Shown piece after piece: positions 1 to 8,116 of a stretch of DNA of 8,116 nucleotides. The translations under genes and the position numbers were made by a program. Where the stretch lies: IMG/VR virus record IMGVR_UViG_2622736468_000006, positions 1 through 8,116 of that record, one strand, 5' to 3'. The first letter of the stretch is position 1; every line of letters starts with the position of its first letter. A model generated the notes under the pieces. That model ran no database searches. It saw only the letters and a list, made by a program, of their open reading frames with translations, and was not told where the DNA came from. The stretch comes from a virus. Taxonomy: Duplodnaviria > Heunggongvirae > Uroviricota > Caudoviricetes.

Positions 1-42
1 AATGTAAGTATCATTTTTCATTGTTATATCTTTTGAATATTT

Positions 43-50
43 CTCGTTAG
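43..50. repeat. Left copy of 8-bp target site duplication CTCGTTAG flanking IS1
   Basis: CTCGTTAG at 43-50 directly abuts the IS1 end and is repeated exactly at 819-826 abutting the other end. IS1 is known to generate 8-9 bp duplications. Confidence 0.85.
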
Positions 51-65
51 GGTAATGACTCCAAC

Positions 66-569
66 TTATTGATAGTGTTTTATGTTCAGATAATGCCCGA
101 TGACCTTGTCATGCAGCTCCACCGATTTTGAGAACGACAGTGACTTCCGTCCCAGCCTTGCCAGATGTTGTCTCAGATTCAGATTATGTCGCTCAATGCG
201 CTGAGTGTAACGCTTGCTGATTACGTGCAGCTTTCCCTTCAGGCGGGATTCATACAGCGGCCAGCCATCCGTCATCCATATCACCACGTCAAAGGGTGAC
301 AGCAGGCTCATAAGACACCCCAGCGTCGCCATAGTGCGTTCACCGAATACGTGCGCAACAACCGTCTTCCGGAGCCTGTCATACGCGTAAAACAGCCAGC
401 GCTGGCGCGATTTAGCCCCGACATAGCCCCACTGTTCGTCCATTTCCGCGCAGACGATGACGTCACTGCCCGGCTGTATGCGCGAGGTTACCGACTGCGG
501 CCTGAGTTTTTTAAGTGACGTAAAATCGTGTTGAGGCCAACGCCCATAATGCGGGCTGTTGCCCGGCAT
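66..569 (-). CDS. insB: IS1 InsB frame, the catalytic part of InsAB' transposase reached by a -1 frameshift from insA
   Basis: The 167-aa translation matches canonical IS1 InsB and overlaps the insA 3' end in the -1 frame. Confidence 0.95.
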
Positions 570-763
570 CCAACGCCATTCATGGCCATATCAATGATTT
601 TCTGGTGCGTACCGGGTTGAGAAGCGGTGTAAGTGAACTGCAGTTGCCATGTTTTACGGCAGTGAGAGCAGAGATAGCGCTGATGTCCGGCGGTGCTTTT
701 GCCGTTACGCACCACCCCGTCAGTAGCTGAACAGGAGGGACAGCTGATAGAAACAGAAGCCAC
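488..763 (-). CDS. insA: IS1 InsA, the transposition inhibitor / DNA-binding N-terminal part of the InsAB' transposase
   Basis: The 91-aa translation ([32 protein letters not shown]...) is the canonical InsA with its zinc-finger-like CxxC...CxxC and HTH. The start codon is GTG on the minus strand. Confidence 0.95.
506..514 (-). other. IS1 programmed -1 ribosomal frameshift motif (A6C slippery run) in the insA/insB overlap
   Basis: Plus strand reads GTTTTTTAA, i.e. TTAAAAAAC on the coding strand, inside the insA-insB overlap. This is the known IS1 frameshift site. Confidence 0.85.
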
Positions 764-818
764 TGGAGCACCTCAAAAACACCATCATACACTAAATCAG
801 TAAGTTGGCAGCATCACC

Positions 819-826
819 CTCGTTAG
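819..826. repeat. Right copy of 8-bp target site duplication CTCGTTAG flanking IS1
   Basis: Exact repeat of 43-50 immediately outside the IS1 terminus. Confidence 0.85.
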
Positions 827-1066
827 CCCGCGCCCAATCTGGAATTACGGGCTTTCTACACCATCCATATGGTCATCACAGATCCATTAGCCGATCCACA
901 TAAAGTTTAAATTTACTATATTTATCATGATATTATCGACAACCCCACCCTCCCTCTAGATCCTTTTTACTGAAAAAAAGTGAAATCCCTTTCATTCATT
1001 TCAGTTTATATTCTCCGCAAAGCCGCCAGTACTGGCGCGGGCTGGCGATATGTTTTGAAGAAAAAT

Positions 1067-2239
1067 TTAACTGAAAAATTTTATCGATCCAGAAACCGCA
1101 GGCGGGTGCGGTGTAGTGCCGTTTTTGTCTGCGAAAGATTTATTTTGTCTGCATGTGGCTACCTCAGAGCGTCGCTGTGAATTTGATCTTATTGCGGTGT
1201 CGCAGTGGTTATCCTGCGGCGTACATCCATCCCATTGCGATACAAAGCCACCTTTGCTGTGTACTGCGTGGAAACGTGATGGCGCAGTGATGGTGTAAAA
1301 CTCACCGGCCAGCCCTTCTTCATTGGCCATATCTTCAAACCCTCGCATTCTTACCATTAGTTCACATCGACGGATCGCCGGATTTGCAACGCTGCGGTGC
1401 ACCATGCTGTCCAGTGCAATGCGCAGCCCCTCATCATTCAGCAGTTCAAACTTTTTAAAGAACTCCAGATTCCGCTTTTTCTGGTCTATCCATTCACCCA
1501 GTGTTTTGCGGGATACATAAGCGCTGGCCGCTTTTTGTACCTGTCCCACCGCGATGGCCATATGTTCGCGCTGTGTATCACGCGCACGTTTAAGACGCAG
1601 GTACCACCATTCCGGCGCCATCATGCGCAGTATCCCTGATTCCGCCTTACGCATTTCCAGTTGGCCTTCATTTGCTTCGTGTTCAACCCAGTACGGCGGC
1701 TGGTTATTCAGCATCAGGCAACACGCACAAAGATGGCGGTATGATTCCAGGGTGCGGCGGTGCAGCTCTCTGGCGTCGTCAGTGCCGGAATCAAACTGTT
1801 CGGTGAAGTCATAAAGTGACTGGGAAATCCAGCCAGATACCTGGTCAGCCAGTTTTTTAAGATCAGGACGGTCTAGTGACAGCAAGCGTTCCAGCGACTT
1901 ACCAAAAGGAAGATCAGCAGCGTCAGCGGCCAGCGAGTAACGCGCAGCCACTTTGCGCAGACGTGGCAATACACTCCCGCCGATAGTTTGGCGCAGGAAT
2001 GTATTGGCACGGCGACGCCCGTCACGACCAGCAAACAGCTTTTCGTAACGACGGCCAAAATACCCGGCTAACCAGTCGGGTATCTCATGAAGGTACTGTG
2101 AGCGCCATTCGTAATCCTGCGGGTTAACCGACCACAGGCGGCGCTCGGTGATCGTGGCGTCTGTAGGCGTACCCGGTGCGAACGTTTCACGCCGCCAGGT
2201 ATCGACGGAGTGATGTTGGCCATTGGCTACAGGAGTCAT
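1067..2239 (-). pseudogene. gpA-like rolling-circle replication initiator (P2/186 A family), N-terminal ~390 codons only; likely truncated
   Basis: ATG at 2239-2237 overlaps the dam stop as ATGA. The translation contains FYTITAPSRFHAVH, resembling rolling-circle initiator motifs 1 and 2, but no paired-tyrosine (Y..KY) catalytic motif. It ends at 1067, about half the length of characterised P2/186 A proteins (roughly 700-760 aa), and the DNA downstream (819-1066) has stops in every frame. Confidence 0.6.
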
Positions 2240-3096
2240 GCGCAAGCCATCGCTATAGAATCAAGCGGCGACTTCAGAATTAACTCTGCGGCAACTTTCT
2301 GGCTTGCAGCTGCGGCACCAACACTACGCGGGGCATTAATGCGAACGGCTTCAAATCCGGCGTACAGGTAATGCACCATTTCCAGATCGGCATTAGAGGC
2401 CACAACCGGTACACCTTTTCTGGCCAGACGGCGCAACTTACGCGCCAGCCTCCCCTGATCCATGTGCGAAAAACCGCGCTCATGGTAAGCGGTGAAATTG
2501 TCGCTTTCAGTCAGATAAGGCGGATCACAGTAAACAACGTCATTCCCGTCCCGAACCAAATCGAGCGTTTCTGAATAGTGGGCAGTAATGAACGTTGCGC
2601 GTTTTGCTTTTTCAGCAAAGGCGCGGATTTCATCAGCGGGGAAATAAGGCTTTTTGTACTTACCGAACGGGACGTTGAACTGGCCTCGACGGTTATACCG
2701 GCACAGACCATTGAAGCAGTGCCGGTTCAGGTACAGGAAACGCGCAGCAGCTTCTACAGATTCCGAACCAAAGGATTTACCTGACTGGTTGAAAGCATCC
2801 CGCACAGCATAATAGAAAACTGCGCGGCTTTCTTCATCACCTAACGAACCGGCAGTAAACAGACTTTCCAGCTCATTGAGCAGCGCATCAGTGTGATACG
2901 CCATCGCCTTATAAAGATTAACCAGATCAGGATTCACATCTGCGATCAGATACTCGTCATAATCTGTATTCATCATGACGGCGCAGGAACCTGCGAACGG
3001 TTCAACCAAGCGTTTACCTTCTGGAAGGTGCGGACGCAGCTTAGGCATAAGGCGGGCTTTGCTACCCACCCATTTAAGCGGAGTTTTAACGGCCAT
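2236..3096 (-). CDS. dam: DNA adenine methyltransferase, Dam family (orphan N6-adenine MTase, predicted GATC specificity)
   Basis: 286 aa from ATG 3096-3094, preceded by GGAGG five nt upstream. Motifs: EPFAGSCAV (SAM-binding motif I), LYLNR...NGLCRYN...[14 protein letters not shown], and the catalytic VYCDPPY (motif IV). Collinear with E. coli Dam over its whole length. Confidence 0.9.
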
Positions 3097-3415
3097 AATG
3101 ACCTCCGCCAACTAACGACTCTGTTACACCGTTTGAAATGATGTATTCCAGCACTTCAAGCGGTGACAGCGAACGGATAGATAAAACCACCCAATTTTCG
3201 GCATCAGCGATAATTTCATTCACCGGCAAAACATGGGTGATAACTGCCGCCCACTCTCGCCCGGTGTATTTCCCGTGCTTCCACTCGCACAATGAAAGAA
3301 CATCACCGGTTTTATACCCGCGATCATTTTTACGCAGCTCGGCCTTTTTCTGACCAGCCACCACAGCATTAAGGTATTTCGGCGCAATTTTTACCGCATG
3401 GATTTTGATTGTCAT
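3086..3415 (-). CDS. ASCH-domain protein (PUA-like fold, DUF3850-like), function unknown
   Basis: 109 aa from ATG 3415-3413, which overlaps the exonuclease stop as ATGA. Carries the ASCH signature GxKxxExR (AGQKKAELR) followed by NDRGYKTGD. The track start at 3466 is a TTG and was not used. Confidence 0.65.
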
Positions 3416-4008
3416 TTTGCACCGCCTTGCGCTAAAGCTTTGATGACACCTAATGTCATTTTGCAATCAGCTAAAGCACGGTGTGCCTTCCCCTCGATCA
3501 CAACTCCTTCATGCGCGGCGGCATCAACTAACTTATGCCATTTATAACCGTGATATTTCCCCGGCTCGCCACGATATTCTGCATATAGTTTCATTGCGCA
3601 AACAGAATGAGCAGCAAGCATCCATGGCGCACCTTCAGAAGGTCTTCCATTCAATGCGTAGGTCTGACGAATTAACCGGAGATCATAATCGGCGTTATAG
3701 ATAACAAAGCCAAAACGTCTAATAAGTTCTTCCACTGCGCCGCATATATCTGTCCACGCAGGAGCATAGGCAACCATTTCATTTGTGATCCCATGAATGG
3801 CAATTGCTTCATCAGGAATAGGCTTAGTAGGTTTAACAAGCGTGTTAAGCAGAATAAATCCATGGCTATCAATGATGCATATTTCTACTATTTCTGCATC
3901 ATCACCCAGCCCCGTGGTTTCGGTATCAATAAATAGGCGATCATCGTCAAGCCACTGTTGTGCTAACAGGCTGATAGAATACTGCAATTGCTTTGTATTC
4001 AATTCCAT
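3412..4008 (-). CDS. DnaQ-like 3'-5' exonuclease, DEDDh family
   Basis: 198 aa from ATG 4008-4006, with AGGAGG six nt upstream. Exo I motif FIDTETTGL, Exo [12 protein letters not shown], Exo III HRALADC. The track start at 4029 is a TTG and was not used. Confidence 0.85.
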
Positions 4009-4232
4009 GCTGCACCTCCTTTGCTGCAAATCGCCGCTGCTTCTTCGCGGATTAACTCAACGATTTCCGCTGCGCTTAAACCTTCATTGGCTGCATGAGT
4101 AGCCAGCTTATCCAGACGGGTGGAACACAGATCAGCAGTTGCGGCTTTACCTTCCTGCGTGGCTTTGGTGAGCATGGCCAGCAGGTCGGTGCCTGATTTT
4201 GTTGCGGGTAAATCCTGACGTGTCATGTGCAT
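3999..4232 (-). CDS. Hypothetical phage protein, 77 aa, Ala-rich
   Basis: ATG at 4232-4230 with GAGGA seven nt upstream. Its 3' end overlaps the exonuclease start by 10 nt. No recognisable motif. Confidence 0.5.
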   Translation of the reverse strand: MHMTRQDLPATKSGTDLLAMLTKATQEGKAATADLCSTRLDKLATHAANEGLSAAEIVELIREEAAAICSKGGAAWN

Positions 4233-4299
4233 TTTGGTTTCCTCAAGGCAAAAGAATCCCCGGCCACTTGAATCGTGGACAAAAAATTCAGGCAGTTAA

Positions 4300-4701
4300 T
4301 TAGTGAAAAGTGGGTTGTACTGTGGCGGCTGAGTAGTTCGGTGCCGGAATCAGGTGCAGCTCATAGGTTATCCGCCACCACTCCTGGATCAGCGCTTTTA
4401 TCTCGCCAACTCCCAACGCCCCGGCTGTATAGAAAATTGCACGAATCCCCGCCAGCGCTTCTATCTGGGCTTCTTTGCTTTTCGCTTCGCGATATACGCA
4501 GCACCAGAAAGCAGCATTGATCGCCAGCCAGTGACGCGGATTTGTCATGTGTTCAGTGTCGTTGAAGAAGAACGGATGCAAAGCGATACGCCCATTTTTA
4601 CTGGTGCTTTTCTCTGCAAACGCTAATGCGTAGTTATGCGGGACGCCCCACACAGCCAGCTCTGCCCCTAGTGATTTACCTTCAACCGAAATAATGGACA
4701 T
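4300..4701 (-). CDS. Hypothetical phage protein, 133 aa
   Basis: ATG at 4701-4699 overlaps the upstream stop as ATGA, with AGGGG eight nt upstream. The ORF fills the whole interval without internal stops. No family recognised from sequence alone. Confidence 0.55.
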   Translation of the reverse strand: MSIISVEGKSLGAELAVWGVPHNYALAFAEKSTSKNGRIALHPFFFNDTEHMTNPRHWLAINAAFWCCVYREAKSKEAQIEALAGIRAIFYTAGALGVGEIKALIQEWWRITYELHLIPAPNYSAATVQPTFH

Positions 4702-5129
4702 CAGTGATTCCCCTGTTGCTGTAACTTCTGGACAATATGAGGTGCAATCACCATCTGCACCCCGCTGCTGCTATAAATTGGATGAACCTTCTTGATTGGG
4801 CGGTTCGCGGTACGTTTCGAAAAATCGCTGTCACGTAAACTGCCGAAACCTTCAAACGTTAACCGCGCCCGTGAAATGCCCTGGCGCAGTTGAATCATGT
4901 CCCGATAGCCCAGGCGTTCATAAAGCTCACGCCAGCAGCACTTGCTTAAATGGGCTTTAAATGCCCCGGTACCAGAAGTAACCGCAGCAGCATGAAGTAC
5001 TACGCCGCGCCACTCCGGTGTCAAGTTGTCCCACCATTCAGCGGCCTCGCTGCTTTCGCTGAAGTATTTGCGGCGGATCTGTTTTAAATGCTCCAGCCCG
5101 CGCTTTTGCTGTTCCTGGCTAATCGCCAT
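4701..5129 (-). CDS. Hypothetical phage protein, 142 aa, basic
   Basis: ATG at 5129-5127, immediately preceded on the coding strand by a G9 homopolymer. The stop overlaps the next ATG. No family recognised. Confidence 0.55.
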   Translation of the reverse strand: MAISQEQQKRGLEHLKQIRRKYFSESSEAAEWWDNLTPEWRGVVLHAAAVTSGTGAFKAHLSKCCWRELYERLGYRDMIQLRQGISRARLTFEGFGSLRDSDFSKRTANRPIKKVHPIYSSSGVQMVIAPHIVQKLQQQGNH

Positions 5130-5133
5130 AGCG

Positions 5134-5142
5134 CCCCCCCCC
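5134..5142. repeat. Homopolymeric tract, C9 on the plus strand (G9 on the coding strand)
   Basis: Nine consecutive C at 5134-5142. On the minus strand this reads TAG-GGGGGGGG-CGCT-ATG, lying between the stop of the 57-aa ORF and the start of the 142-aa ORF. Confidence 0.9.
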
Positions 5143-5315
5143 TATAGCCCCATCAGACGACGCCACCACGGGCGACGCGGCTGCTGGCCATTGAATTTGT
5201 ACATGTGGCCAGGGTTCCAGCGCTGACCGTTCGGCAGTTCAATCCAGCCCGTTGAACCACTGGGCAATTGCATGGCCGGTGATTCGTTTTTCAGGTAAGT
5301 GACAAACGCTTTCAT
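5142..5315 (-). CDS. Small hypothetical protein, 57 aa, in the position occupied by fil-like genes in 186-type phages
   Basis: Not in the supplied track. ATG at 5315-5313 with GGGAGA upstream, directly after the cII stop. Translation: MKAFVTYLKNESPAMQLPSGSTGWIELPNGQRWNPGHMYKFNGQQPRRPWWRRLMGL. Stop is TAG at 5144-5142. Confidence 0.45.
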   Translation of the reverse strand: MKAFVTYLKNESPAMQLPSGSTGWIELPNGQRWNPGHMYKFNGQQPRRPWWRRLMGL

Positions 5316-5324
5316 GGTTCTCCC

Positions 5325-5828
5325 TCACATCAGGCCGGTGGCGTTGGTTGTGACCAGATCCACCGCAGCGGCCAAAACCGGCGCAGAGTGAATACGGCTT
5401 TCAACGGTATAAGCCAGCACGGATAAGCTACGGATTGCATCTCGGGCGCGATCCAGAATTTGAGTACGGCGGGCGGCGGTCATATGGCCAGCTGATACGG
5501 CTTCCCCAGCAATCGCGCCCACACTGGCTGTGGCGCTCAGTGCACACAGTTGTATGTTGCCTTCTGTTGCATTGTTCACCGGTACGGATGGAAGGCAGTT
5601 AATCTGCCCCAGCATCCCATCCAGTAAACGCGCATCTTCGGTGTAATCCGTGATAGCCAAAAGTTCATCACAGGTCAGGCGGTGCGGTTGCGCTGGGTTC
5701 AGTTTATTACGCAGGATCTGCGGCCTCATACCAACGGCAGCGGCCACATCTTCAAGATTGTGCTCAATTGCAAATGCTCGGCAAGCCGCATCAAAGTGCG
5801 CATGTTTAGAGGTCTGGTAATCAAACAT
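5325..5828 (-). CDS. cII: Phage regulatory protein CII (186 CII / CP76 family), lysogeny-establishment activator
   Basis: 167 aa from ATG 5828-5826, with GGGAGAGG upstream. The N-terminus (MFDYQTSKHAHFDAACRAFA...ILRNKLNPAQPH) matches my recollection of the 186 CII family. It is the second gene of the lytic operon, after the cox/apl-like gene. Confidence 0.75.
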   Translation of the reverse strand: MFDYQTSKHAHFDAACRAFAIEHNLEDVAAAVGMRPQILRNKLNPAQPHRLTCDELLAITDYTEDARLLDGMLGQINCLPSVPVNNATEGNIQLCALSATASVGAIAGEAVSAGHMTAARRTQILDRARDAIRSLSVLAYTVESRIHSAPVLAAAVDLVTTNATGLM

Positions 5829-5858
5829 TGTTTGCCTCTCCCTAATCCGTAGGATGGA

Positions 5859-6080
5859 TTACGCGTTAAGCGAAATGTCACATTCGCTTAAAGCCTGAAT
5901 AGTGAGCGCGGCCATGTTGACTTCGACCAGGCCTTTCTTCTGCTTACCCTTCGGCTTAATAGGTAATTTCCCGTATTCGATCAGGTTCCTGGCGGTTTCT
6001 TTGTTGGTACCAGTACGGCGGCAATACTCGTCTAAAGGCAGGTATGGCTCTGGGATGATGATTGTAATGTTCGGACGCAT
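5859..6080 (-). CDS. Cox/Apl-type small HTH protein (excisionase and switch regulator)
   Basis: 73 aa from ATG 6080-6078, with GGAG eight nt upstream. It is the first gene of the minus-strand operon, divergent from the repressor gene. The segment IPEPYLPLDEYCRRTGTNKETARNLIEYGKLP resembles the Cox/Apl N-terminal HTH. The track's longer version starts at a GTG at 6140. Confidence 0.6.
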   Translation of the reverse strand: MRPNITIIIPEPYLPLDEYCRRTGTNKETARNLIEYGKLPIKPKGKQKKGLVEVNMAALTIQALSECDISLNA

Positions 6081-6199
6081 GAGGCAAACTCCATAAGTTA
6101 ACCTGTACGGCAATACAGGGCTGTAACTGTCAATATTCACTTAAACCTACAAAGCGGAGTTTAAACTCACTTTGCGCAAGATTTCAAGGTAAAACTTTC
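6081..6199. promoter_or_regulatory. Lysis-lysogeny switch region between the cox/apl-like and cI-like genes; expected to hold the lytic and lysogenic promoters and their operators
   Basis: 119-bp intergenic region between divergent start codons. Contains a CTGT-N8-ACAG motif, a TTGACA hexamer on the minus strand (6133-6128), a 10-bp direct repeat and a 12-bp palindrome. Exact promoter hexamers could not be assigned with confidence. Confidence 0.6.
6103..6118. promoter_or_regulatory. Candidate LexA (SOS) box, or repressor operator: CTGTACGGCAATACAG
   Basis: Fits the LexA core CTGT-N8-ACAG with dyad-symmetric CTGTA/TACAG arms; located 23 bp upstream of the cox/apl-like start. Resembles the E. 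coli sulA box (CTGTACATCCATACAG) except in the central four positions. Confidence 0.35.
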
Positions 6200-6778
6200 G
6201 TGAACCTACAAATTGAGTTTTCTCATGGCGGAGCTGAGGTACTAGATAGAGTTATCCAAGCGTATGGATTCAACACAAAACTAGCCCTAGCCGAACATCT
6301 TGATATAGCAAGCAGCAGTCTGGCTAACCGGTATAAGAGGGATTTTTTTCCAGCTGATATCGTTGTTAGATGTATGGCTGAAACAGGAGCTACTCTGGAA
6401 TGGCTTGCGACTGGACAAGGTAGAAAGTTTAACGATGACGAATTAGACATCATGAAATTGCCACGCAAGAAGATTGTGGACGGAAAACTCTATGAGTCTG
6501 GTTTCCTAATGCTCGATAAGGTTACTTTTTTACCTGGCAAACCTTTACCGCAGAATCCTATCTGTGTGATTGATAACACAATGCAATACATTGTTGATCA
6601 ACACTTTACTGAAGTTTATGACGATGTTTGGCTTGTCGAAGTTGAAGGTAAAACCAGCGTTAGAACACTAACACGCATCCCTGTGGGAAAAGTTAGAGTA
6701 AGCGGCGTAGGTATGGCTTTTGACTGCGGTATTGACGATATAAAAATCATCGGCCGCATTGTTCTGACGATTGAATGA
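6200..6778 (+). CDS. cI: Immunity repressor, 186 CI-like (N-terminal HTH, no LexA-type peptidase domain evident)
   Basis: 192 aa from GTG 6200, the only in-frame start upstream of the HTH segment KLALAEHLDIASSSLANRYKRD. Sits directly upstream of int with its stop 1 nt before the int ATG, and divergent from the lytic operon. Length and arrangement match 186 CI. Confidence 0.75.
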   Translation: MNLQIEFSHGGAEVLDRVIQAYGFNTKLALAEHLDIASSSLANRYKRDFFPADIVVRCMAETGATLEWLATGQGRKFNDDELDIMKLPRKKIVDGKLYESGFLMLDKVTFLPGKPLPQNPICVIDNTMQYIVDQHFTEVYDDVWLVEVEGKTSVRTLTRIPVGKVRVSGVGMAFDCGIDDIKIIGRIVLTIE

Positions 6779-6779
6779 A

Positions 6780-7820
6780 ATGAGTGTTCGTAAACTTCCG
6801 ACAGGCGAATGGATCGCCGACTTCTACACCGTCAACCGTAGTAATGGTAAGAACGGGAAGCGCATACGTAAAAAATTTGCCACGAAGGGGGAAGCCCTGG
6901 CATTTGAGAACCATACGCTTCAGAAAGTAGACAATGCGCCCTGGCTGGGTGAAGGGAAGGACAAACGAACTTTAATAGACCTGATCACAATGTGGTATGA
7001 ACGCCACGGAGTAGCTTTGCGCAATGGTCAAAAGCGTAAAGACGCTATGACCTGGGCGGCAGAGTGCATGGGATTCCCGCTAGCTACAGAGTTTAATGCC
7101 CAGCTGTTCACGGCCTACCGCGCAAAAAGGCTTGATGGGCATTATGCCCGCACTAGCAGAGTATCCAAGGTTTCCCCGAAAACAATGAACCTTGAACATG
7201 CTTACTTCCTGGCTATGTTCAACGAGCTGAAACGAATCGGGGAATGGTCAGCCCCCAACCCACTGGAAAACGTCAGACAGTATCGTACTGATGAAACCGA
7301 AATGGCTTTCCTCACTGCTGAAGAAATTGAGCGGCTTTTGCTGGAATGCAAACGAAGCAAAGTAAAATACTTGGAGCTAGTCGTAAAAATCTGTCTTGCG
7401 ACCGGCGCAAGATGGAATGAAGCGGCAACGCTGAAAAGCTCTCAGATCGCAGGCGATAAAGTTACGTTCGTTAAAACCAAAGGGAAGCGCAACAGAACAA
7501 TCCCCCTTGATGATGAACTTCTATCCGAATTGCCTGAAACGAAAGGCGCTCTGTTCCCCAAACCCTGCTATAACGCGTTCCGCTCTGCTTTGGAACGCGC
7601 AGGCATTGAACTCCCCTCCGGCCAGCTTACCCATGTACTGCGCCATACATTTGCCAGCCACTTTATGATGAACGGCGGGAACATTCTGGTTCTGCAAAAA
7701 ATTCTCGGCCACGCTGACATCACTATGACAATGCGTTATGCCCATTTCGCCCCAAGCCACCTTGAAGATGCCGTGCGACTTAACCCCTTAAAATGTCGCA
7801 AAAATGTCGCGATAGCTTAG
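6780..7820 (+). CDS. int: Tyrosine recombinase / integrase, P2 Int family
   Basis: 346 aa from ATG 6780 (the track begins at TTG 6771). C-terminal catalytic signature present: LATGARWNEAA, HVLRHTFASH, LQKILGH, MRYAHFAP (catalytic Tyr). The N-terminus (MSVRKLPTGEW...GKRIRKKF) is collinear with P2 Int. Confidence 0.95.
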   Translation: MSVRKLPTGEWIADFYTVNRSNGKNGKRIRKKFATKGEALAFENHTLQKVDNAPWLGEGKDKRTLIDLITMWYERHGVALRNGQKRKDAMTWAAECMGFPLATEFNAQLFTAYRAKRLDGHYARTSRVSKVSPKTMNLEHAYFLAMFNELKRIGEWSAPNPLENVRQYRTDETEMAFLTAEEIERLLLECKRSKVKYLELVVKICLATGARWNEAATLKSSQIAGDKVTFVKTKGKRNRTIPLDDELLSELPETKGALFPKPCYNAFRSALERAGIELPSGQLTHVLRHTFASHFMMNGGNILVLQKILGHADITMTMRYAHFAPSHLEDAVRLNPLKCRKNVAIA

Positions 7821-7854
7821 AAATACTGCCGAATACTCACAGATATTAACTAAC

Positions 7855-7884
7855 GTAACTTATTGATAACACTGTAACTTATTG
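7855..7884 (+). repeat. Two 11-bp direct repeats GTAACTTATTG (7855-7865 and 7874-7884) in the attP-like region downstream of int
   Basis: Exact 11-bp direct repeats 19 bp apart, 35 bp after the int stop. An AATACT pair also occurs at 7822-7827 and 7832-7837. Consistent with arm-type Int or IHF sites. Confidence 0.4.
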
Positions 7885-7907
7885 TTTTTCGTAGATAGTT
7901 GATGCTT

Positions 7908-7929
7908 TATAATATAGCCTGTGCTATAT
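7908..7929 (+). promoter_or_regulatory. Candidate promoter -10 element (TATAAT, 7908-7913) overlapping a perfect inverted repeat ATATAGC-N4-GCTATAT (7912-7929)
   Basis: Perfect consensus -10 hexamer about 75 bp upstream of the small ORF at 7988, with only a weak -35. A 7-bp-arm perfect inverted repeat overlaps it. Confidence 0.3.
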
Positions 7930-7987
7930 CTGTATGTAATGCAATCATCCCTCAAGGATCGACGGGATTAGCAAGTCAGGAGGTCTT

Positions 7988-8116
7988 ATGAATGAGTTCA
8001 AGAGGTGTATGCGCGTGTTTAGTCATTCTCCCTTTAAAGTACGGTTAATGCTGCTCTCTATGTTGTGCGATATGGTCAACAACAAACCGCAGCAAGATAA
8101 ACCTTCCGATAAATAG
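7988..8116 (+). CDS. Small hypothetical protein, 42 aa (MNEFKRCMRVFSHSPFKVRLMLLSMLCDMVNNKPQQDKPSDK)
   Basis: ATG at 7988 preceded by AGGAGG (7978-7983, 4-nt spacer). Ends with TAG exactly at the window end. Not in the supplied track because it is under the length cutoff. Confidence 0.4.
   Translation: MNEFKRCMRVFSHSPFKVRLMLLSMLCDMVNNKPQQDKPSDK

Follow-up and report, generated by a model that had tools for sequence, protein, structure and literature searches.

An inverted repeat with covarying arms around a putative Cox box in the switch region of a 186-like prophage remnant: probably a conserved stem-loop with an incidental likeness to a LexA box

In P2-like phages, the operators of Cox/Apl-type proteins are direct repeats spaced by one helical turn and located between face-to-face promoters (PMC7498355). 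In phage 186, the region between pR and pL contains the Apl sites as direct repeats with a spacing of 10-11 bp (PMC7498355; 186 record), and the 186 record gives the order cI, pR with the CI operators, seven Apl sites, and pL with its -35 element inside apl. It also shows that 186 senses SOS induction indirectly, via the LexA-controlled tum (p95-tum). In this study, we analyzed the switch region within a stretch of 8,116 nucleotides of viral DNA (Caudoviricetes; IMG/VR virus record IMGVR_UViG_2622736468_000006, positions 1 to 8,116), hereafter called the window, which covers the early genes and the immunity region of a prophage remnant of the 186-like type (Peduoviridae) in reversed orientation relative to the 186 map. 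The subject is an SOS-box-like CTGT-N8-ACAG motif upstream of the cox/apl-like gene of this prophage. A preliminary description made from the sequence alone had named the indirect SOS route of 186, in agreement with the 186 record, and had proposed for the window a LexA operator directly in the switch and thereby a different SOS-sensing wiring, or else an operator for the phage's own Cox/Apl or CI protein. We found that the motif belongs to a conserved inverted repeat with covarying arms, which encloses a putative Cox box and probably forms a stem-loop, and that the motif most probably resembles an SOS box by coincidence.

The motif, CTGTACGGCAATACAG, occupies positions 6103-6118 on the + strand and starts 23 bp upstream of the ATG of the cox/apl-like gene, which is read from the - strand with its A at 6080. 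The half-sites CTGTA (6121-6125) and ACTGT (6126-6130) come after it. These positions had been given correctly in the preliminary description, as had the placement within a lysis-lysogeny switch, which is here that of a 186/P2-like prophage, the motif lying between the inferred promoters pL and pR. The full symmetry extends one base further on each side and results in the inverted repeat CCTGTA-N6-TACAGG at 6102-6119 (- strand; in the sense of cox CCUGUA-UUGCCG-UACAGG), with a 6-bp stem and a 6-nt centre, ending 21 nt upstream of the cox ATG. The window holds a single CTGT-N8-ACAG; a motif-like sequence with a 3-bp insertion, ACCAGTACGGCGGCAATAC, is present at 6009-6027 within cox. The latter was rejected as a second operator, as it encodes the invariant residues E-Y-C-R-R-T-G with varying synonymous sites (TAT 88 / TAC 38), and it is probably a coding coincidence. 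The bare CTGT-N8-ACAG pattern is by itself not significant, since it is expected 0.10 times per shuffled window and occurred at least once in 18 of 200 shuffles. The strongest evidence that the motif is more than chance is its comparative conservation: a palindrome at the same position in almost all of the related loci described below rules out a chance motif.

For the comparison, Cox relatives in genomes (25 loci), viral contigs (80) and metagenomes (80) were used to gather a set of 186 related loci. Nearly every locus has, at an unchanged distance from the ATG, an inverted repeat whose centre is a 6-nt TTGNCN and whose arms differ between loci. Besides CCTGTA/TACAGG, the arm types CCGATA/TATCGG, TGGATA/TATCCA, TGATA/TATCA, CCGACA/TGTCG, CTGACA/TGTCAG, CGTGTA/TACACG, CCTATA/TATAGG, CCCACA/TGTGG and CCGAGCT/AGTTCGG were found; the loop has 6 nt, and the stem, 6 bp in the window, has 5-7 bp in the relatives. 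For the analysis of covariation, 68 distinct 26-mers were aligned by anchoring on the loop motif alone, without use of the arms, which gave an alignment free of gaps save in one sequence. In the stem of seven pairs, 89.0% of the cells were paired vs 67.5 ± 1.4% in shuffles. Changes on both sides of a pair occurred at all seven pairs and amounted to 104 cells vs 33.7 expected, a value reached in none of 500 shuffles. Sliding the 3′ partner by 1-3 columns reduced pairing to 16-41%, and to 24-30% when the slide was a single column. The strongest double changes were located at the outer pairs (columns 5-8 with 19-22), with 23, 24 and 21 of the 68 sequences at three successive pairs, while RNAalifold alone recovered the inner five pairs. 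At the two pair positions that would give rise to the CTG and CAG of a LexA box, the commonest pairs are G-C (40/68) and A-U (43/68), and the window has U-A and G-C there.

The centre of the repeat belongs to a phased array. The loop contains ATTGCC (6109-6114, - strand), which is the best conserved TTGNC unit and is set here as offset 0. A further unit, ATTGAC (6129-6134, - strand), lies 20 bp upstream on the cox strand, and the unit at 10 bp (6119-6124, ACAGCC) is degenerate in the lineage of the window. Among 76 distinct sequences, TTGNC was present at the offsets -20, -10 and 0 in 53, 31 and 72 cases, respectively, and the period is exactly one helical turn. Cox would presumably bind these TTGNC units, which are hence called putative Cox boxes. 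The Cox/Apl operator that the preliminary description had offered as an alternative to LexA fits the centre of the motif, ATTGCC being a member of the array with 10-bp phasing, but does not fit the arms.

The start codons of cI and cox are 119 bp apart. A pR-like promoter (6158-6187, - strand) consists of TTGAAA (6187-6182), an 18-bp spacer and TAAACT (6163-6158), with 9 of 12 matches in the promoter scan and a start expected near 6151; like pR of 186, it is located beside the cI start. For pL, the inferred -35 element TTGTAA (6062-6067, + strand) lies within cox codons 5-7 at the same offset to the ATG as the annotated pL -35 element of 186 has to the apl ATG. The inferred -10 element CAAACT (6085-6090, + strand) is likewise at the offset of the 186 pL -10 element and overlaps the cox Shine-Dalgarno region (GGAGT, 6088-6092) of the other strand. 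The codons ATT ACA (window 6062-6070) are synonymously fixed in 128/128 and 127/128 distinct genes, whereas the neighboring Pro and Thr codons vary freely, which would fit a pL -35 element embedded in the cox coding sequence. Upstream of cox, the block GGAGTTTGC, which holds the -10 element of pL, is nearly invariant in the first 25 related loci listed. With starts near 6151 for pR and 6097 for pL, the motif would be placed in the overlap of about 55 bp between the two face-to-face promoters, and the inverted repeat would span about +33 to +50 when counted from pR and about +6 to +23 when counted from pL. The corresponding gap between pR and pL of 186 is filled by the Apl sites. Close to pR, two further repeats were observed in the window: AACCTACAAA occurs twice, 59 bp apart (6144-6153 and 6203-6212), on either side of pR and the cI start, and the perfect palindrome GAGTTTAAACTC (6158-6169) overlaps the pR -10 element. 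Both recur in loci with the same CI cluster and are candidate CI operators of the window's immunity type.

The design was also found in more distant relatives. Yersinia phage vB_YenM_324 has it with the new arms TGAGTA-TTACCG-TACTCA and phage ESSI2_ev015 with TTGAATG-TTGCTG-CATTCAA. In a second family (Klebsiella ST13-OXA48phi12.1 type; L194, L260-L339), Cox is 41% identical and the boxes are GAATAGTG. In ST13-OXA48phi12.1 itself (L194), the middle box lies within GTGCCTAA...TTAGGCAC, a covarying 8-bp hairpin that ends 22 nt from the cox ATG. As judged from these sequences, the design would be common to two Cox families with different boxes, TTGNC and GAATAGTG. In the RefSeq record of ST13-OXA48phi12.1, the cox open reading frame (ORF) is annotated on the wrong strand, where a hypothetical protein covers it.

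For scoring the motif as a LexA box, the Lewis-type matrix of the heterology index (HI) was rebuilt from 232 of 368 sequence-HI pairs in PSOSP Table S1 (PMC12527982) as an additive model with a maximum residual of 6e-5. The 20-mer ACCTGTACGGCAATACAGGG (6101-6120) has the CTG-N10-CAG core, with T at position 6 and A at position 15, and it obtained an HI of 14.26, with penalties from the G+C-rich centre and both flanks. Among 24 tested sites, binders reach up to an HI of 12.6 and non-binders start at 15.5, and the PSOSP thresholds for E. coli K-12 are 13.2 and 14.8, the range between them being classified as 'uncertain' (PMC12527982). The value of the window site thus falls between binders and non-binders and inside the 'uncertain' band of PSOSP. 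The preliminary description had regarded an index well above validated sites as evidence against LexA; 14.26 is above all of them, yet not well above. There is no canonical LexA box in the window, and no site scores better than 14.26. At the orthologous position, CTG-N10-CAG is present in 8 of 53 distinct 20-mers (90/178 loci), with HI values of 11.9-15.9. The other variants have CGA..TCG, GGA..TCC and similar letters with the pairing kept, so the conservation check suggested in the preliminary description turned out against LexA: it is the palindrome and not the letters of the LexA core that is conserved. At positions preferred by LexA and not needed by the stem or the loop, no drift to the LexA consensus was detected; position 2 is always C.

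In relatives of this phage, an SOS input was found elsewhere. An intact E. coli relative with a motif identical to that of the window (L029) has the LexA box TACTGTATGCATATACAGTT (HI 3.81) 22 nt upstream of a gene for a 60-aa protein right after the replication gene. Aligned with the N-terminus of 186 Tum, this protein is 33% identical across 48 residues (E 5e-6), and the position of the gene (6159-6383 of L029) equals that of p95-tum in 186. The 60-aa family corresponds to phrog_698, which is listed by PHROGs as of unknown function. On viral contigs, a LexA box with an HI of 8 or less was present 20-25 bp upstream in 60 of the 62 tum-like loci with upstream sequence. On the viral contigs that share the cox family of the window and have CTG-type or closely related arms, a LexA box precedes the Tum-like gene in 19 of 20 cases, 18 of them at HI 1.5-8 and one at 8.36. 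This survey suggests that the phage family of the window uses the indirect SOS route of 186, its SOS input being presumably the canonical LexA box before the Tum-like antirepressor gene. The prophage in the window is a remnant, and the region where relatives hold the LexA box and the tum cassette is gone; the cassette is absent because the replication gene is truncated next to IS1.

Based on these comparisons, we consider it fairly probable that, in the overlap of pR and pL, a Cox-type operator unit is enclosed by a conserved stem-loop, which probably acts in RNA, and that the LexA likeness is incidental. The Cox/Apl-type excisionase-repressor would bind the phased TTGNC units between pR (cox, cII and downstream genes) and pL (cI and int) and repress both promoters. 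The arms would be selected for mutual complementarity and not for their letters, so the element would most likely act as a stem-loop in a transcript, and CTGT...ACAG would be one of many permitted stem sequences. Candidate sites of action would be the 5′ ends of the two transcripts: in the leader of the cox mRNA, the hairpin would occupy about +33 to +50, counted from pR, with 9 nt between it and the downstream Shine-Dalgarno sequence, and in the pL transcript it would occupy about +6 to +23. As a guess, its role might be in leader stability or translation or in pairing between the convergent transcripts; gating of cox-cII leader translation, loop-loop pairing of the pR and pL transcripts, or holding RNA polymerase over pL would be further options. 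By such means, the stem-loop could set the balance of the switch after transcription has begun. A role at the RNA level, either in the cox leader or in the interplay of convergent transcripts, would in our estimation have slightly less than an even chance of being correct. A somewhat less than even chance is given to the proposal that the repeat represents an undescribed cis-acting RNA element of Cox-type P2-like switches, with the pL-proximal Cox box in the loop, 21-22 nt from the cox start. The covarying stem-loop, which encloses a Cox operator unit in two Cox families, is a robust comparative signal and has, to our knowledge, not been described for P2/186-like switches. A His-type pause signal after the hairpin was also considered and dropped, as the base before GGAG is unconserved.

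Several observations weigh against this reading. The hairpin is short, and the folding energies of the whole leaders are ordinary (z-scores 0.50 and 0.15); for the pR leader, the centroid fold includes the hairpin, whereas for the pL leader the minimum-free-energy fold includes it and the centroid does not. Mismatches of the G.U and A.C types are balanced in the main family (7 vs 5 in the inner five pairs), which favors neither transcript strand in this family and would be compatible with a role of the palindrome at the DNA level. In the first 25 loci, all G.U wobbles had seemed to be on the cox-sense strand, a claim withdrawn for the main family in view of the balanced counts over all 186 loci. 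That the constrained strand is the cox-sense strand is suggested by the second family only, in which the arms covary across 80 relatives and the well-formed stems have 102 Watson-Crick, 10 G.U and 0 A.C pairs in the cox sense, counted with an own script that took the best loop length per sequence and thereby favored pairing. The variable loop length of the second family kept RNAalifold from finding a consensus structure in its alignment without gaps. Furthermore, the repeat is lost in several divergent loci (L007, L015, L019, L021, L022, L189, L193), and the search in Rfam gave no relevant family, the best match being Termite-leu with an E-value of 0.81 and elsewhere in position. The geometry is based on predicted promoter starts. 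In addition, CTG-type arms are the commonest (90/178 loci), and some of these variants have HI values of 11.9-12.9, within the validated weak LexA range.

Other explanations of the repeat start from proteins. One of them is that the motif is no more than a part of the Cox operator array, with a dyad symmetry that arises as a functionless by-product of AT-rich unit ends. In its favor, the ends of the 10-bp repeat unit (ATTGNCNNAT) supply the inner pairs (TA...TA), and no box is better conserved than the one at the centre. We consider this improbable, as the outer pairs lie outside the repeat consensus and have the strongest double changes, and as a slide of the partner by one column abolishes most of the pairing. 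An equally small probability is assigned to a palindromic operator for a dimeric phage protein (Cox, CII, CI using a weak auxiliary site at pL, or another one), in which the arms would shift with the specificity of the protein. The dyad symmetry, the location between two promoters and the mismatch types of the main family, balanced between the strands as a constraint at the DNA level would give, are in favor of such an operator, and CI of 186 acts at pL as well as at pR. The arms, however, do not follow the DNA-binding domain of CI: the CI N-domain cluster of the window was found with CCTGTA, CCGATA and TGGATA arms, one CI N-domain cluster goes with 3-5 arm types, and CCTGTA arms were found with at least 10 CI clusters. 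Moreover, in about 20 E. coli prophages, the identity to the window amounts to 96-99.7% over the stretch that runs from cII and cox up to position 6120, the base that follows the inverted repeat; past this point, they carry a different pR region with different operators and a cI only 76% identical, although they share the motif to the base. This sharp mosaic breakpoint at 6120/6121 (L001 3321) separates two modules of the switch, one with pL and the Cox boxes and one with pR and the CI operators. A CI operator, also named as an alternative in the preliminary description, was rejected on these grounds. Cox was rejected as reader of the arms, as the Cox proteins of the window and of L008 have identical helix-turn-helix sequences yet CCTGTA and CCGATA arms, and CII was rejected likewise, one CII N-domain cluster being found with five arm types. 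More than 15 arm variants among closely related phages are also far beyond the known immunity specificities. LexA, for its part, is an essentially invariant host protein and therefore unable to explain covarying arms. Since none of the regulators compared here tracks the arms, the constraint appears to be on complementarity itself, which points to a stem-loop in the transcript and, with less likelihood, in the DNA.

A LexA operator could nevertheless be functional within the CCTGTA lineage if it were a weak one. It would then give the switch a direct SOS input between pR and pL, either in addition to Tum or in its place; for instance, LexA might act as a roadblock to transcripts from pR until DNA damage removes it. 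The core CTGT-N8-ACAG is perfect, the HI of 14.26 is below that of the lowest validated non-binder, and the validated binder with the highest HI, ACCTGTAGGATCGTACAGGT (12.6), has the same ACCTGTA...TACAGGT arms and a G+C-rich centre (PMC12527982). The number of CTG-N10-CAG sites with an HI of 14.26 or less that chance would give is 0.094 in 8.1 kb and only about 0.001 in a switch region of 100 bp. The sister variants at HI 11.9-12.9, the frequency of the CTG-type arms, and the state of the prophage as a remnant without a tum cassette and without a canonical LexA box in the window are further points in its favor. They are opposed by the position of 14.26 above all validated binders in the uncertain band, by the absence of the LexA core from 45 of the 53 distinct variants in which complementarity stays, and by the centre, a G+C-rich Cox box that, like position 2, has not drifted to the LexA consensus. 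On nearly all contigs with similar arms, a LexA box is already present upstream of tum, and the logic would be awkward: with the site at about +6 to +22 of pL, LexA would repress cI in undamaged cells and release it on damage. We thus regard this explanation as unlikely, if a little less so than the two operator models above. Weak LexA binding in the CTG-type clade is possible as judged from the scores, and it is very probable that the motif is not a conserved LexA operator. The direct SOS wiring proposed in the preliminary description is therefore unsupported.

The further gene content of the window is that of a 186-like early and immunity region. The cox/apl-like gene (5859-6080, - strand) encodes 73 aa and matches phrog_575, 'Cox-like excisionase and repressor' (E 1.5e-27). 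The cI repressor gene of the 186-CI type (6200-6778, + strand) encodes 192 aa with PF07022 and PF16452 and 41% identity to 186 CI. Downstream of cox, a cII-like activator gene (5325-5828, - strand; PF06892, E 9e-47) and fil (5142-5315, - strand) are followed by further early genes down to a truncated replication gene beside IS1-like ORFs. This replication-endonuclease gene (1067-2245) is cut to 392 aa, vs 671 aa in an intact relative, and the neighboring ORFs (66-763, within window 30-800) are InsA/InsB-like and presumably those of an IS1-like element. On the other side, the integrase gene int (6771-7820, + strand) is assigned by the RefSeq annotation of near-identical E. coli loci, with the att region and host mntS beyond it; in E. 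coli chromosomes, these loci are located between mntR and mntS. Two other repeats were observed near these genes. In the final cox codons, a 9-bp perfect inverted repeat, TTAAGCGAA-N8-TTCGCTTAA, is present at 5866-5891, a position equivalent to that of the FR CI site and pE region in 186; as it is identical in relatives with different cI, it is perhaps not a site for CI. Where int ends (3′), AAAATGTCGC forms a tandem repeat (7790-7810), and just past int TACTGC, TACTCA and TATTAA at 7824, 7834 and 7844 have an exact 10-bp spacing and loosely resemble TATTGNC. These could be candidate Int arm-type sites and Cox (excisionase) sites, respectively, near att.

Direct LexA wiring would depart from the 186 paradigm, and the evidence argues against it. 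This is also of relevance for tools that call prophages 'SOS-dependent' by HI scans, which would flag the site of some relatives (HI 11.9-12.9) on mistaken grounds. The natural arm variants represent ready-made compensatory mutants; among them, CCGATA/TATCGG lacks the LexA core and hence separates the hairpin from the LexA model. If the role in RNA is true, a genetic switch for which good models exist would gain a further layer at the level of RNA.

In comparison with known systems, the likeness to the E. coli LexA operator (consensus TACTG(TA)5CAGTA) consists in the perfect CTGT-N8-ACAG core within a 20-mer palindrome, whereas the window site differs by an HI beyond that of validated binders, a G+C-rich spacer and a core that is unconserved in orthologous sites. 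LexA acts directly in the phage switch at the CTXphi rstA promoter and in Bacillus phage GIL01, through sites that match the LexA box well and are conserved as targets of LexA. Such wiring is what had been proposed for the window, where the motif is in contrast without conservation as a LexA site. Lambda boxB and P22 sar/ant are examples of small regulatory stem-loops in early phage leaders and of antisense pairs at convergent promoters. By analogy, the window element is alike in its small covarying stem, the conserved loop near the start of an early transcript and the overlapping convergent transcripts, and it differs from them in having no N-like protein, second element, known antisense function or Rfam match. 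The cassette in the relatives is alike to p95-tum of 186 in the canonical LexA box at a gene similar to the Tum N-terminus directly after the replication gene, although the protein of the relatives (L029, L195-L259) has only about 60 aa and is devoid of the DinI-like C-terminal part of 186 Tum.

The closest counterparts of the switch itself are the Apl array of 186 and the Cox boxes of P2 between Pe and Pc. In common are the convergent lytic and lysogenic promoters some 50-60 bp apart, the small Cox/Apl-type excisionase-repressor gene leading the lytic operon, the repeats spaced by helical turns between the promoters and, for 186, the offsets of the pL hexamers to the ATG. In contrast to 186, the Cox protein of the window showed no similarity to Apl in BLASTP, and the repeat is TTGNC and not the 186 sequence. 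No comparable inverted repeat was found in the switch regions of 186 and PsP3. In P2, the region between Pe and Pc (L340 933-958) contains a perfect inverted repeat of 8 bp, TTTAGTGC-N10-GCACTAAA, which may be just a repressor-operator-like repeat, its left arm resembling the operator repeats of the C repressor. What sets the window apart from both 186 and P2 is that one repeat unit of the array is enclosed by a covarying inverted repeat.

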